This document shows positions 6,430 to 50,271 of a stretch of 64,000 nucleotides of DNA, piece after piece; the stretch's first letter is position 1; each line of letters starts with the position of its first letter. The DNA is taken from the NCBI GenBank assembly GCA_947475995.1, contig CANJNI010000022.1, forward strand, positions 2,018 through 66,017, written 5' to 3'. The translations under genes and the position numbers were made by a program. A model generated the notes under the pieces. That model made no database searches and had not been told where the DNA came from. It worked only from the letters and a program-made list of their open reading frames with translations. The stretch is from Beijerinckiaceae bacterium. GTDB taxonomy: Bacteria; Pseudomonadota; Alphaproteobacteria; Rhizobiales; Beijerinckiaceae.

Positions 6430-7283
6430 TTAGGCGGACAGCGCCGCGCGTGGTCCGGTTCCGCCAAGCTTGCGCGTGACCTCCGCAGCCGCCTCCCGAA
6501 TGATCCGGGCGGGCGCTCCGTCGGGGGTGGTGTCCATGAAGCCCGCCGAACCGACCAGCGTCATGGCGATCGCGAGTCGACCCCGGTGATCGAAGATCGG
6601 CGCCGATACAGCCGCGAATTCGCGGACGCTTTTGCCGATCGTGAAAGCCATGCCGTCGGCGATCACATGCCGCCGCATCGCGTCGATGTCGTCGGCCGGG
6701 GGGGCGGCGCGCCAATGATCTGCTCATCCCACTCGCGCAACTCCTGATTGATGCGCGCCTGCGTTTCCTGCGGCGTCAGATAGGCAAGGAAGATTCGGCC
6801 CGAGGCGGTGCGCAGAAGCGACAGGGTGCGGCCTTCGCGTGTGCGCACGGCAGAATCGAGATGGGCCGTCTCACTGCGGATTACGGTCGGCCCGTAGCTG
6901 CCCCAGACGCTGATCGACGACGTGAGGCCGGTCCGGTGGGTGATTTCCACAAGCTTTTCGGTTGCTAGCTTCACCCCGTCGAGTCGCGAGACGGCCGTGA
7001 CGCCCAGTTCGACGAGTTGCGAGCCGAATTCGTAGCGGCCCGTATAGGGATCGTGGCTGACGAGTTCGGTCAGCACGAGGCCCATGAGATAACGATGGGC
7101 GCGGGGAGGGGACATGGCCGCCGCCGCAGCGATCTCGGTCAGCGTGGAAGGGCGGCCAAGGCGGGCCATCACCTTCAGCAGCGAGACTCCGACCACAATC
7201 GAGCGGTTGCCGTGACGCGGCATGGCCGCCGCAGAGCGGACGTCTTCGGAATCGGAGGATCCGCGCTTTTTGGCCGGCGGCAT
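6430..7283 (-). pseudogene. IclR family transcriptional regulator interrupted by a frameshift in a G7/C7 run (6698-6704)
   Basis: HTH half (RSIVVGVSLL...LTEIA...RAHRYL) in one frame and the effector-domain C-terminus (AAVSAPIFDHRG) in the next; adding one base restores ...GAPPPPADDIDAMRRH... Confidence 0.85.
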
Positions 7284-7522
7284 GAAGAAACCTCTGTGGC
7301 GTCCGCTCTCTCGCACCATAGCTTGGGCGTTACAATTCAATATTTACGCAATTCTGGCCGATTGGACCGAAAAGGCCTGCTTTTGATCGAAAATCTCAAC
7401 TCAAGGTGCCCCGAAACCGGCGGGTTTGCAATTGCATCGTCCTGCCGCCGGGTCTCGAGGAGGGCCGCCGTTGACGCCTGTGCGCCCCCGTCCTAAGCCC
7501 GAAGCCGAAACAGGAAACCAGC

Positions 7523-7975
7523 ATGTCCGGACCCAAGACCGGCCTGACGCAGGAAGCCAAGGAGGCGATCCGCATCGGCGACAAGGTGCGCGACTGGCGA
7601 GAAGCCACGCGCTGGGGATTTCTGCTGGCCGCCTTCATGCGCATCGTGGCCATCCTGTGGCTCTTCCAGGGGCTGCTCCGCTGGTCCGATGTGCTGATGC
7701 CTGCGCATTCGATCTTCGACCTGACGACGCCCGACAAGGCCGCCTCGACGGTGTTCTTTTCCGTCACCAATCTGGTGGCGGCAGTGGGGCTGTGGCTTGC
7801 GACTCCATGGGGCGGCGTCCTGTGGCTCGTGGTGGTCGCCGCAGAGTCGATGATGACCTTCGTGATGCCGGATTTCTTCGCCGCGCCGCGCTTCACGCTG
7901 GGCGTCGATGTGGTGCTGGTGATCACCTATTTCGTGCTCACCTGGTACGCGGCGCGCGAGCGCGACGCCTTCTGA
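7523..7975 (+). CDS. DUF6163-like small membrane protein
   Basis: Four hydrophobic segments, AAVGLWLATPWGGVLW motif, position upstream of the LdtR-type regulator as recalled for Rhizobiales. Confidence 0.7.
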   Translation: MSGPKTGLTQEAKEAIRIGDKVRDWREATRWGFLLAAFMRIVAILWLFQGLLRWSDVLMPAHSIFDLTTPDKAASTVFFSVTNLVAAVGLWLATPWGGVLWLVVVAAESMMTFVMPDFFAAPRFTLGVDVVLVITYFVLTWYAARERDAF

Positions 7976-46322: not shown

Positions 46323-47495
46323 ATGACCACCATCGCCGCGACCGGACAGTTGCTGACGCACGGGCGTCTGGACCTTGCGTCGGCTAGGTCGCGGCGATTG
46401 CAGGCTTTCCTGAGCGAGGCCGATTGCACAATCGGCAATTTCGAAGGCACGGTCGAATCGCCCGGCGCATGGCCGACGAAAACCAAGACGCTGCATCTGG
46501 CGACGCCCGATGCGCTGAATTCAATCCGCGAGTTGGGTTTCGACGCCGTCACCCACGCTAATAATCATTCATTCGATCTAGGGCCGCCCGGAATTGCGAG
46601 CACGAAAGCGGCGGCGCTCGCGGCAGGCCTCGCTTTCGGCGGCAGCGGGATGACCATCGACGAAGCCGCTGCGCCCGCCATCGTGGAGCGCGCTCGCAAA
46701 CGCATTGCGACGCTGGCGTTCTGTCTCGGCCCACAGCCCGACATCGTTTATGCGTCGAGGGATCGCGCCGGCATTGCGCCGTTGCGGATGCGCCGCGCGG
46801 TCGCAATGCCCGATGCGGAATTCGAGGCGTTTCGCCGCGTTGCGAGCGGGTTGGGCGACGATCTGCGCGAGAAGAACCGCAGTCGCATGGGCTATCGGCA
46901 GGAAGCGCTGGCGGACGACCAGACCGAAGTCTTCGGCGCTGCCATCCGTCGTGGTTCTGCGATTGCGCCCGAATGGTCGGCGCACCCGGGCGATCTCGAT
47001 GCATTCAACTCGAAGCTGGCGCAGGCCTGCTCCGAGGCTGATCTGGTGGTGGTGGCGGTGCATTCGCACCATTGGGACCCGGACTGGTCGCGCACGCCGA
47101 AATGGCTACATCAACTCGCCTGCGGGTTGATCGACCGTGGCGCACACATGGTGGTCGGCACCGGTTCGCCCGTGGTGCAGCCGGTGGCGTTCCATCGCGG
47201 TCGCCCGATCCTTGGCGGACTTGGCAATCTGATCTTCCACACGGCCCGCAGCGGAACCTATGACCGCGAGGGCGTCAGCGTCTGGGACAGCATCGCGTGC
47301 CGCGCGCGGTTCAACGATGCAGGCGAGTGCGACGAACTCGCCATCATGCCGGTGGTGGTGGGCCGCCCGGACGCCGGCCCGAACGGATTGCCGGTCGGCC
47401 CGCAGGCGCACGAAGGAAGAGCGGCGGAAGACCTTTTCAAAAAAACAACCGCGACCCTCAGTGAAGAGGATCGCGGTCGCGTCAGGCTCGTCTGA
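46323..47495 (+). CDS. CapA/PGA_cap metallophosphatase-fold protein with degenerate metal motifs
   Basis: IGNFEG, HANNHSFDLG..G, VHSH, LGNLIF. Confidence 0.8.
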   Translation: MTTIAATGQLLTHGRLDLASARSRRLQAFLSEADCTIGNFEGTVESPGAWPTKTKTLHLATPDALNSIRELGFDAVTHANNHSFDLGPPGIASTKAAALAAGLAFGGSGMTIDEAAAPAIVERARKRIATLAFCLGPQPDIVYASRDRAGIAPLRMRRAVAMPDAEFEAFRRVASGLGDDLREKNRSRMGYRQEALADDQTEVFGAAIRRGSAIAPEWSAHPGDLDAFNSKLAQACSEADLVVVAVHSHHWDPDWSRTPKWLHQLACGLIDRGAHMVVGTGSPVVQPVAFHRGRPILGGLGNLIFHTARSGTYDREGVSVWDSIACRARFNDAGECDELAIMPVVVGRPDAGPNGLPVGPQAHEGRAAEDLFKKTTATLSEEDRGRVRLV

Positions 47496-49064
47496 TTATT
47501 TTGCGATTGAGGCGTCGACGGCCGTCGTGTCTTCGGCCTTCGAGGGCTTGTAGTTGATCGTCGCCTTGCCGGCCCAGTGCACCTTCTGCCAGTAGAGCGG
47601 CACGACCGGCACGTCCGCAAAGCCCATGCGGGTCGCTTCCTGGAACAGCGCGAGGCGCTTGTTCAGGTCGAACTCCGAGAAGCCTTCCTTCATCTTGGCG
47701 TCGAAGGCGGCATTGGTGTAGCGCAGGCGATTGAATGCGCCTGTGCCTTCCTTCGCGTCAAAGGTCATCAGCAGGTTCTTGAGGCCGGGGCCGCTCGTCG
47801 GCGTCGTATTGCCGAGCGAGAAGATGAAGACCGAGAACATCTGCTTCGTCGCATTGCCCGCATAGACGTTATAGGGCTGCGCGACGACTTCGTTCACCTT
47901 GATCCCGCCGCGCGCAAGCATCTGGCCGATGGCCTGCGCTGTGCCGGAATCGCCCGGGAAGCGGTCGTTTGACGTATGGATCGTCAGGCCGAACCCGTTT
48001 GGATAGCCGGCTTCCGCCATCAGCTTCTTGGCGCCGTCCGGATCGTAAGCCGGCACCTTGATCGAAGGATCGTGGCCCGCAACGCCCTCCGGCACCAACT
48101 GACCGGCCGCGAGGCCCGAGCCATTCAGAATACGGTCGATGATCAGGTCGCGATTGATCATTTTCGAGATCGCTTCGCGCACCTTGAGGTTCTTCAGCGG
48201 GTTCGGAACCAGCGGCTTGCCGTCCGTGGTGGTGATGAACGGGGCTTCATCGCGTACCGTGTCGAGCGCCAGATAGATCATGCGGGCGGAGGCGGTGGAA
48301 TAAACCTTGTAGCCCGCCATCTTGGCGATGCTCGCGGCGTCTTCCGGCGGCACGGCGTCGATCAGGTCCACGCTGTTTGAACGTAGCGCTGCGATGCGCG
48401 CGGCGTCGTTCGAGATGACGCGGATCGTGGCGTTCTCGAAGTCCGGCTTCTTGCCCCAGTAGTCGTTGTTGCGCGTCAGGACGACCCGGTCGCCCTTCGC
48501 CCAGGACTTGAACTTGTAGGGGCCGGTGCCGATGGCGGCCGCGCCGCTGTTGAAATCTTCGAGCTTCTTGCCTTCTGCGGCCTTCTTGGAAACGACGAAG
48601 ACCGAGCCGATCTGCTCGATGAAATCGGGCGTGGGGCCCTTTGTGGTGAACTCGATCGTCAGCGGATCGACGATCTTCATCTCCGCGATGGACGCCACAT
48701 TGCCCGTGAAGGGCGCGGGGCTGTTGGGAATGTTTCCGGCGCGCGAGAGCGAAAACACCACGTCGTCCGCCGTCAGCGGCGAACCGTCATGGAATTTCAC
48801 ATTGGCCCGGACCTTGATGAGCCATTTGTTCGGCGCGATGTTGGTCCAGGCCTCGGCGACTGCCGGATATTGCTGCAGGTTCTCGTCGATGCCGGCGATG
48901 CGGTCGAAAATCTGCATCGCGATGTTCTGGTTGTTGCCCGTGCGCGAGAAATGCGGGTCGATCGCCGATGTTTCGGTCGAACTGGCGATGGTGATGTCAA
49001 CCGCGAGAGCCGGGGTGATTCCCATCGCAAAAACCAGTGCGAGGGCAGGGCGGACGTAAGCCAT
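47496..49064 (-). CDS. ABC transporter substrate-binding protein, dipeptide/oligopeptide family 5
   Basis: IDPH, VKFHDGSPLTADDVVFS, IGTGPYKF, NDRFPGD. Confidence 0.9.
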   Translation of the reverse strand: MAYVRPALALVFAMGITPALAVDITIASSTETSAIDPHFSRTGNNQNIAMQIFDRIAGIDENLQQYPAVAEAWTNIAPNKWLIKVRANVKFHDGSPLTADDVVFSLSRAGNIPNSPAPFTGNVASIAEMKIVDPLTIEFTTKGPTPDFIEQIGSVFVVSKKAAEGKKLEDFNSGAAAIGTGPYKFKSWAKGDRVVLTRNNDYWGKKPDFENATIRVISNDAARIAALRSNSVDLIDAVPPEDAASIAKMAGYKVYSTASARMIYLALDTVRDEAPFITTTDGKPLVPNPLKNLKVREAISKMINRDLIIDRILNGSGLAAGQLVPEGVAGHDPSIKVPAYDPDGAKKLMAEAGYPNGFGLTIHTSNDRFPGDSGTAQAIGQMLARGGIKVNEVVAQPYNVYAGNATKQMFSVFIFSLGNTTPTSGPGLKNLLMTFDAKEGTGAFNRLRYTNAAFDAKMKEGFSEFDLNKRLALFQEATRMGFADVPVVPLYWQKVHWAGKATINYKPSKAEDTTAVDASIAK

Positions 49065-49396
49065 TTTGGCTCCTTGCGAAAAAAGACGACCGGATCGACC
49101 GTCCGGCGGCGGATGATTGTTCGGCGGTGAACAAATTGCAAGAAGCCGGGCAGCTATTTCGACTGCGCGGCTTGTTAACGCCTTCAGGGCGCCTGGCACA
49201 CGAAGGAAGCCGCGCTTTCCACGCCGCCGTCGCGGTATTTGGCGCATTTCCAGGTGTCGAATCGGCCAAACCCGATCCCGCCGCCGCAATGGGTCCCGCC
49301 CGGCGCGGCCACTTCTCCCTCGCGGCAGTGCGGCTGCCGGAAGTTGTTATACCATAGAATAATATTGTGCAGCCGCGCTTGCGCAAGGGGAGCGCG

Positions 49397-50131
49397 TCAG
49401 GCCGTCGCCAGCAGCATCCCGTGGCCCTGAATGGGCTTCCAGTCGTTCAGCTTGTGCATGACGCTCCAGACCATCGAGGGCTGGTTGGTGATGACGGGCT
49501 TTCGGAACTCTTCTTCGAGTTGGTCGGCCACATTGGTCACCAGCCAGCTGCCGCCGCCGATATAGACGGCATCGCAATCGGGGTTTTCCAGAAAGGCGCG
49601 CTTGCCGAGCTCATAGGCAAGCCGCGAATGGTCCTTGGCGGCGATCTTCTGGAAGTCTGACGGGGCGATTTCCTTGGTGACCTGACCGCAGACCGAAACG
49701 CCCTCGCGGCCGAGAAACTGCGCCAGCGTGGCGTTCATCGCGTCGGACCATTTGTTGACGCAGGCGACCTTTTTCAGCCCCATGTGGCGGCAAGCGCGCG
49801 CCACCGCATCGACGGTCGTGGCGGCGGGTTTGCCTGTGTAGGTCTGCATCCGGTCGAGCAAACGGTCGTGTCCGTCCAGACCCAGCACCAGCGGCAGCGG
49901 CACGCCGTTCTGCATGATGGCGTCGATGCCGCGCTCCATCAGCGAATCCATGTAGGATTCCAGCGGCGCGAAGATGCGGTCCATGTCGGCGGCTGAAAAC
50001 TCCTTGAGCCCCAGCGGGATCATCACCAGCATGTAATTCGATGGAAACAGATGGATCAGCTCATAGGCCGATACATCGATCACGTTCAGCGGCTGCAGGC
50101 TGCCGATGGAGAATTTTGGATCTTCGAGCAA
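49397..50131 (-). CDS. Asp/Glu/hydantoin racemase - maleate isomerase/arylmalonate decarboxylase family protein lacking the catalytic cysteines
   Basis: Family layout with PVIT.N..M.W at the end; probable TTG start after GGGAGG. Confidence 0.7.
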   Translation of the reverse strand: MLEDPKFSIGSLQPLNVIDVSAYELIHLFPSNYMLVMIPLGLKEFSAADMDRIFAPLESYMDSLMERGIDAIMQNGVPLPLVLGLDGHDRLLDRMQTYTGKPAATTVDAVARACRHMGLKKVACVNKWSDAMNATLAQFLGREGVSVCGQVTKEIAPSDFQKIAAKDHSRLAYELGKRAFLENPDCDAVYIGGGSWLVTNVADQLEEEFRKPVITNQPSMVWSVMHKLNDWKPIQGHGMLLATA

Positions 50132-50271
50132 ACGGACCTCCCGATTTTGGTTGATCGTAAACGCATGTCCAGCCTGCGGCAAAGTCGGCGCCGGAGGTCT
50201 TCTCCTGTGCGCCCGCAAGCACTAGATTGCCCCAGCGGGGCAGGAAGCCCGATTATTTGCGAGTCATTTGG

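Follow-up and report, generated by a model that had tools for sequence, protein, structure and literature searches.

A cysteine-free protein of the arylmalonate decarboxylase fold from a Beijerinckiaceae bacterium, its clade and its solute-binding protein neighbours

Arylmalonate decarboxylase (AMDase; EC 4.1.1.76), an enzyme with no assigned natural substrate, is prized in biocatalysis. In the enzyme of Bordetella bronchiseptica (structures 3DTV, 3DG9, 2VLB and 3IP8), one carboxylate of the substrate is held in a polar oxyanion hole while a hydrophobic pocket destabilises the second, which is released as CO2; Cys188 then protonates the enolate (PMC6563808, PMC4996985). The published criteria for recognising an AMDase are Cys188 as the proton donor, Gly74, the dioxyanion hole, the P14-P15 pair and the hydrophobic pocket (PMC4996985, Table 4), and A125 is counted as a residue of that pocket because the substitutions V43I/A125P/V156L/M159L are described as pocket mutations (PMC6563808). 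True AMDase genes are also flanked by genes for transporter binding proteins, which have been proposed to import carboxylated substrates (PMC4996985, PMC5812351). Recent work still takes one or two catalytic cysteines to be the hallmark of the fold to which the enzyme belongs (bioRxiv 10.64898/2026.01.14.699310).

Two further structures are relevant here. Maleate cis-trans isomerase (EC 5.2.1.1), represented by the Nocardia farcinica enzyme (2XEC/2XED) and by Iso of Pseudomonas putida S16 (4FQ5/4FQ7), has a catalytic pair that we take to be Cys76 and Cys194 in the Nocardia numbering. The other, 4IX1, is the hypothetical protein OPAG_01669 of Rhodococcus opacus PD630, a structural genomics entry without functional annotation. 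Our search of the literature found no characterised cysteine-free member of the family and no paper mentioning 4IX1. The gene described in this study lies in a window of 64,000 nucleotides (positions 2,018 to 66,017 of contig CANJNI010000022.1, assembly GCA_947475995.1) from a Beijerinckiaceae bacterium, and the original prediction had been that it encodes a protein of the racemase/maleate-isomerase family with neither catalytic cysteine.

The gene, its flanks and the fold of its product

The coding sequence and the features next to it are as follows.

49397..50131, minus strand: coding sequence of the cysteine-free AMDase-fold protein, 244 aa plus stop codon, TTG start
50137..50142, minus strand: ribosome-binding site GGGAGG, 5 nt before the TTG start, read from the sequence
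49084..49104, minus strand: terminator-like hairpin and T-run, within the 332-nt gap downstream and just before the ribosome site of the binding-protein gene
47496..49064, minus strand: family-5 periplasmic solute-binding protein, 522 aa from the ATG at 49064, with a signal peptide; the conserved downstream partner of this orthologue

The motifs and coordinates on which the prediction was built are real, since the translated minus-strand ORF at 49397-50131 contains IDAIMQNGVPLPLV, DAVYIGGGSWLV, ACVNK and PDCD, and its reading frame is intact. The TTG at 50131 is likely to be the start of a 244-aa gene, because the GGGAGG site stands 5 nt ahead of it and because the best 120 homologues are mostly 244-247 aa long with an N-terminus of MLED or MFE. 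A 273-aa reading from 50218, which is the longest ORF, was considered as an upstream extension and was rejected on the grounds of the same ribosome-binding site and the homologue lengths. The 244-aa protein has no signal peptide, its first strand starting at residue 7, as judged from the sequence and the model. The AMDase-like gene is divergent from a gene for an ADP-forming acyl-CoA ligase in the window, and a gap of 332 nt (49065-49396) separates it from the family-5 binding-protein gene. The same gap is only about 85 nt long in an orthologue of 91% identity (L001), and an alignment of the intergenic gap with L001 and with a 72% orthologue (L018) detected no conservation; an Rfam search of the flanks returned no match. 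The hairpin and T-run sit about 20 nt ahead of the start of the binding-protein gene, which has no adjoining permease or ATPase gene and looks as though it encodes an orphan receptor. This gene and a CapA-like gene end back to back, with stop codons at 47495 and 47496.

The protein belongs to the AMDase/maleate isomerase branch of the Asp/Glu racemase superfamily, on the evidence of a match to Pfam PF17645 (Amdase) with an E-value of 2.1e-26 and 93.4 bits against a gathering cut-off of 25.9, and of a two-lobe Rossmann-like fold. AMDase models rank first in both Pfam and NCBIfam. The NCBIfam equivalog model arylmal_decarb (NF052327) scores 86.6 bits, below its cut-off of 225, and the model of the ectoine utilisation protein EutA (TIGR02990) scores 26.3 bits, below its cut-off of 318. 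An AlphaFold2 model was built from a 38-sequence alignment and has a mean pLDDT of 87 and a pTM of 0.87; in Foldseek it matches 4IX1 first (TM 0.82-0.85), then AMDase (0.81-0.85) and maleate isomerase (about 0.81) and, at lower TM, the aspartate, glutamate, hydantoin and allantoin racemases. The family fold that had been predicted from the sequence is thus borne out. In a word-indexed search 447 relatives reached E 1e-3 or better, the nearest of them being 91% identical and the mean column identity 68%, while an exhaustive search found 1145 cluster representatives at the same threshold. The ESM Atlas returned only clusters of the same family, under automatic names. Fused forms were sought among proteins of 428-2000 aa and none was found.

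Residues of the cleft and the cysteine-free clade

Query and AMDase residues were equated by HMMER alignment with 3DTV, in which a block without gaps over residues 33-135 pairs AMDase residue n with query residue n+2. The loops of interest are given here with their conservation among 90 family members from 85 loci.

49997..50011, minus strand: loop G41-L42-K-E-F45, L42 and F45 corresponding to the AMDase hydrophobic-pocket residues L40 and V43 (G41 88/90, L42 86/90, F45 89/90)
49892..49912, minus strand: site 1 loop Q74-N-G76-V77-P78-L79-P80 (G76, P78 and L79 90/90; Q74 88/90)
49748..49756, minus strand: N126-K127-W128, K127 corresponding to A125 of the hydrophobic pocket and W128 to Y126 of the dioxyanion hole (both 90/90)
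49652..49663, minus strand: P157-S-D-F160, F160 corresponding to AMDase V156 (P157 and F160 90/90)
49544..49564, minus strand: site 2 loop Y190-I-G192-G193-G194-S-W196 (G193 and G194 90/90)
49481..49489, minus strand: T215-N216-Q217 at a helix start (N216 87/90; position 215 is Cys in 53, Thr in 17 and Ser in 16 of 90)

At the first site the block equates G74, T75 and S76 of AMDase with G76, V77 and P78, and further along A125 with K127 and Y126 with W128; after two small gaps, C188 and G189 are equated with G193 and G194. G76 therefore occupies the first-cysteine position of the racemases and of maleate isomerase, which is the G74 position of AMDase, and G193 that of AMDase Cys188 and of the second cysteine of maleate isomerase. 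Maleate-isomerase-type relatives in the alignment read GCTSGS and SCTNF at the two thiol sites, in agreement with the family motifs given in the original prediction. Because the AMDase mapping and the GCT and SCT of these relatives fall in the same columns, both thiol positions are glycine in this protein, and the claim that both catalytic cysteines are missing holds.

When the published AMDase criteria are applied, Gly74 is found (as G76) and Cys188 is not, since G193 is Gly in 90 of 90 members. In a MAFFT alignment with the AMDase-type relative P0243, the P14-P15 pair reads P14-L15. The dioxyanion hole T75, S76, Y126 and G189 has become V77, P78, W128 and G194, so that the glycine alone is kept. 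The pocket residues L40, V43, Y48, V156 and M159 correspond to the hydrophobic residues L42, F45, M50, F160 and I163, whereas A125 is replaced by an invariant lysine. The likeness to AMDase consists of the common two-lobe fold, a glycine at the first thiol site and another after the second, the retention of P14 and N131 (N133 here), several hydrophobic-pocket positions and a location of the genes beside those of transporter binding proteins (PMC4996985). It is offset by Gly for Cys188, Val/Pro for T75/S76, Trp for Y126, Lys for A125, Leu for P15, an overall identity of about 22% and a position in a separate clade. With maleate isomerase the protein shares the fold (TM about 0.8), a dicarboxylate theme and an Asn-Gln pair, placed after the strand that precedes the last long helix, that is offset by one column (TNQ here, TSNQ in the relatives). 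In contrast, both catalytic cysteine columns of that enzyme are glycine in the query, its Pro-Tyr has become Lys-Trp at 127-128, and it matches the query in sequence with an E-value of only 1e-6 to 1e-7. Judged by these residues, the protein fails to qualify as a member of AMDase or of maleate isomerase proper.

The best match in both structure and profile (profile E 1.5e-19) is 4IX1, which is also without both cysteines and reads Q-x-G-T/V-P at site 1. It differs from the query in having S-G-A instead of G-G-G at site 2 and T-Y-Y instead of N-K-W, with no cationic residue, and the two are about 21% identical. Because of the T-Y-Y and S-G-A at the signature sites, we regard 4IX1 as belonging to a different cysteine-free lineage or subfamily.

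The cysteines that the query does contain are C124, C148 and C186. A possible objection raised with the original prediction was that the cysteine of ACVNK or PDCD might stand in for those of the active site. This objection fails because C124 is Cys in only 3 of the 90 members and C186 in 46 (Ala in 41), and because position 215, the other column rich in cysteine (53/90), is Thr in this protein. No cysteine column is conserved among the 90, the query has none at either catalytic position, and another cysteine as the catalytic residue was rejected on these grounds. The residues that are conserved are of a different kind. G76, P78, L79, K127, W128, M132, N133, F139, P157, F160, L175, G193, G194 and E206 are invariant in the 90 members, and Q74, N126, Y190, G192, W196 and N216 are nearly so, which answers the question of whether the motifs of the two sites are kept in homologues. 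In the secondary structure of the model, G76, P78, K127, W128, P157, G193 and G194 lie at or near the ends of strands as they enter the following helix, and the near-invariant residues likewise lie at or near strand-to-helix crossovers, the strands concerned being 71-74, 121-126, 146-152, 188-191 and 213-215. G41, L42 and F45 are found in the equivalent loop after strand 33-40, and the remaining invariant residues are mostly within helices. Strand-to-helix loops line the inter-lobe cleft, the active site, in the Asp/Glu racemase superfamily. Since the conserved residues cluster at these crossover loops, the cleft is under strong purifying selection.

The loss of both cysteines is not confined to this protein. 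Among 97 diverse full-length relatives, chosen as representatives of 50%-identity clusters, the two thiol columns read Gly/Gly in 45, Gly/Cys (the AMDase arrangement) in 35 and Cys/Cys in 3. A quick maximum-likelihood tree of 95 rows contains a clade of 36 (35 Gly/Gly and one Ala/Gly; SH-aLRT 91), and the query falls in a 10-row subclade nested within it (SH-aLRT 99). The opposite half of the tree holds the AMDase-type rows, P0243 among them, and those of maleate-isomerase type; the tree is rooted by midpoint only. The terminal branches of the clade are about 0.7 substitutions per site long, and the cysteine-free state would appear to be largely that of one old clade. Its co-varying signature includes position 127, which is Lys in 24 and Arg in 9 of the 36 rows (33/36) and neither in any of the 59 rows outside (0/59), where Pro (46) and Ala (6) are found. 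Position 128 is Trp in 31/36 and mostly Tyr or Phe outside; position 193 is Gly in 36/36 and Cys in 38/59 outside; position 194 is Gly in 34/36, with Gly in 18 and Ala in 18 of the 59 outside; and position 216 is Asn in 27/36 and Ser in 28/59 outside. By these signature residues and by its grouping in the quick tree, the query is a member of an unnamed cysteine-free clade of PF17645. The names "maleate isomerase" and "arylmalonate decarboxylase" that cysteine-free members have received automatically are very probably wrong. The residue-level signature, and especially the Lys/Arg at the A125 pocket position, is new here.

Genomic neighbourhood, paralogues and distribution

The neighbours of the gene were compared at 85 loci, mostly from metagenome-assembled genomes, with ORFs called using a GC3 filter and grouped into BLAST clusters. 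A binding-protein gene lies immediately upstream in 36 of 82 loci (44%), as against about 8% at positions four to five genes away; when both adjacent positions are counted, the figure is 49 of 89. ABC binding proteins of the PhnS-like kind (about 360 aa) occur within 5 kb in 44 loci and adjoin the gene in 31; their cluster matches Pfam SBP_bac_1/6/8/11 and, weakly, the NCBIfam models of 2-aminoethylphosphonate binders. TctC-type tricarboxylate receptors are present in 37 loci, a fused ABC permease in 23 and MmgE/PrpD proteins in 19. An alpha/beta hydrolase and an old-yellow-enzyme-like flavoprotein of 740 aa also recur, and aconitase-like and isocitrate-lyase-like genes are neighbours in one lineage. 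Beyond the binding proteins, these contexts differ too much from locus to locus to point to a particular substrate.

The original prediction had also placed the gene in an acyl-CoA catabolic region. This is an accurate description of the window and of the 91% orthologue, which has the same gene order, and it does not carry over to the family. A functional tie to the two ADP-forming acyl-CoA ligases was rejected because they are found only at these two places. The conserved neighbour family-wide is a periplasmic solute-binding protein gene, and the acyl-CoA ligase link is local. The 72% orthologue keeps the pair of AMDase-like gene followed by family-5 binding-protein gene.

Other arrangements were seen at particular loci. 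In L036, L038, L050 and L044 (about 7001-7741), the order is binding protein, fused permease and then the AMDase-like gene, in the slot where the ABC ATPase would be expected, and no ATPase gene was found among the ORF clusters of these four loci. A second family of the racemase superfamily (PF01177, Asp_Glu_race, about 250 aa) adjoins the AMDase-like gene in five or six loci; such neighbours were recorded at L045 (1671-2441, plus strand) and also at L060, L077, L059, L079, L083, L065 and L062. Judged by eye, these proteins seem to be without the hydantoin-racemase cysteines, reading NTFDPGV or GTLDVGV at one site and VPLGGA or VPMGVT at the other.

The source genome (4.14 Mb) encodes seven strong paralogues, all of which keep the motifs, and five weaker relatives. 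They include a tandem pair with 21 nt between its genes (G000:C6:133768-135258, locus L091) and a pair that brackets a binding-protein gene (G000:C17:53505-56104, locus L090), in the order permease (minus strand), paralogue, PhnS-like binding protein, paralogue, alpha/beta hydrolase. Among the genomes searched, those of 5 of 18 further species in the genus gave a strong match, and those of 12 further families in the order gave none. The 80 loci kept from a species-representative collection are mostly from metagenome-assembled genomes of Xanthobacteraceae, Beijerinckiaceae and other Hyphomicrobiales, with a few from Deltaproteobacteria, Binatia, Acidobacteriota and Chloroflexota and one from a cultured Rhizobium; plasmids of cultured bacteria gave one distant match (28% identity). 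Because there are seven paralogues in the source genome and yet a patchy occurrence among related species, the distribution is what would be expected of accessory catabolic enzymes whose family is expanding. The quantified adjacency to binding-protein genes, the paralogue count and the patchy distribution are also new here.

Possible functions of the cysteine-free proteins

Because the fold is described as defined by its catalytic cysteines, a large conserved branch without them implies either a cofactor-free mechanism that has not been described or an enzyme fold that has been adopted more than once as a binder in the cytoplasm. Our proposal, to which we would give roughly even credence, is that the gene encodes a putative cytoplasmic enzyme that works without a thiol and has an imported di- or tricarboxylate as its substrate. 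It would be a cofactor-free protein from an old branch in which the catalytic thiols were lost and the cleft rebuilt. A di- or tricarboxylate delivered by the transporter of the neighbouring genes would be taken up by the AMDase-like protein, with one carboxylate held in a hole formed by backbone amides, Trp and Asn and a second anionic group placed on K127, and proton transfer independent of a thiol could then proceed via an enolate-type intermediate. Candidates for moving the proton are K127, the Thr, Cys or Ser at position 215, or a water held by Q74 and N216; by homology with AMDase, K127, T215 and Q74 are expected to point towards the cleft. The presence of tricarboxylate receptors and of MmgE/PrpD, aconitase-like and ene-reductase-like proteins among the neighbours inclines us towards a reaction that isomerises or epimerises a polycarboxylate, unsaturated or branched, rather than AMDase-style decarboxylation. 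A fixed cation at the A125 position should hold an anion, which argues against a decarboxylation that depends solely on the oxyanion hole and favours a substrate carrying two or more anionic groups. The interchange of Lys and Arg at 127 across the clade suggests that the residue acts as an electrostatic anchor and not as an indispensable base, and a role for Lys127 as a Schiff base or obligatory general base is weakened by the Arg found instead in 9 of the 36 clade representatives.

The last observation also counts against the enzyme proposal, since a position that alternates between Lys and Arg is better suited to binding an anion than to acid-base catalysis, and no obvious proton-transfer residue remains. 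The protein might then be a non-catalytic pseudoenzyme that binds an imported carboxylate in the racemase cleft in order to buffer it, hand it over or sense it, the leading alternative, which we nevertheless consider unlikely. The resemblance of the two-lobe fold to periplasmic binding proteins would be in keeping with such a role, as would the glycines at both catalytic positions with no substitute acid or base evident, and the alternation of Lys and Arg at the residue that defines the clade is typical of binding. The tight pairing with genes for binding proteins or ABC transporters, in some cases where the neighbourhood contains no further enzyme, the occasional position of the gene in the operon slot after the permease, and the presence beside it at several loci of a second, apparently cysteine-free family of the superfamily (PF01177) could be read in the same way. 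However, the recurring enzyme neighbours (MmgE/PrpD, ene-reductase-like, aconitase-like and alpha/beta hydrolase) fit a pathway step, the small cleft residues G76, P78 and G193-G194 are invariant across identities of 40-90%, which suggests that a precise geometry is maintained, and the expansion of paralogues resembles that of catabolic enzyme families. The lack of a fused DNA-binding or signalling domain, and of longer fused forms, is weak evidence in the same direction.

Decarboxylation in the manner of AMDase by the oxyanion hole alone, which the original prediction had offered as an example of a new reaction and in which water would protonate the enediolate, now seems improbable. The two glycines shared with AMDase (at the first site and after the second), the hydrophobic and near-invariant pocket positions L42, F45 and F160 and the first rank of AMDase models in Pfam and NCBIfam are what would be expected of such an enzyme. 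Set against them are the loss of the T75/S76 side chains to V77/P78, the proline taking away a backbone NH as well, and the invariant K127 at A125, which would stabilise rather than destabilise a carboxylate in the pocket (PMC6563808). The arylmal_decarb score, at 86.6 against 225, and the position of the query in the other half of the tree from P0243 point the same way. It is very improbable indeed that the gene is decaying, or that it encodes a conventional maleate isomerase, racemase or AMDase relying on some other cysteine: homologues are automatically annotated as "maleate cis-trans isomerase" and C124, C148 and C186 are present, but these cysteines are not conserved (C124 3/90, C186 46/90), and the intact frame, the 447 homologues at E 1e-3 or better, the invariant cleft loops and the recurrence of the same motifs in all paralogues are not those of a gene in decay.

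A broader form of the thiol-independent enzyme proposal, which we put forward tentatively and at somewhat less than even credence, is that the Lys/Arg127-Trp128-Gly193-Gly194-Asn216 clade may constitute a new catalytic class in the Asp/Glu racemase superfamily, carrying out a thiol-independent reaction on di- and tricarboxylates of soil. The reaction could be cis-trans or allylic isomerisation, epimerisation or decarboxylation, with a cation in the place of AMDase's hydrophobic pocket, and the paralogues might each be adapted to whatever ligand the adjacent binding protein recognises. Through its rebuilt pocket, this sister branch could extend the range of reactions open to the AMDase fold. 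The pairing with orphan solute-binding proteins offers a practical route to the ligand, because screening the binding protein should reveal that of its partner.

Two minor observations concern proteins related to these genes by position or by fold. A secreted protein (about 277 aa) that matches nothing in Pfam or NCBIfam is repeatedly encoded just after the AMDase-like gene, at L016 (7865-8695, plus strand) and, as homologues, in L010, L011, L012, L020, L076 and L080; in Xanthobacteraceae the module reads PrpD (minus strand), alpha/beta hydrolase (minus strand), binding protein, AMDase-like gene and secreted protein of about 277 aa. In the representative library, a protein of 3769 aa (P0253) matches the 244-aa fold in 14 separate stretches (E 3e-15) and looks like a giant repeat of racemase-fold modules.
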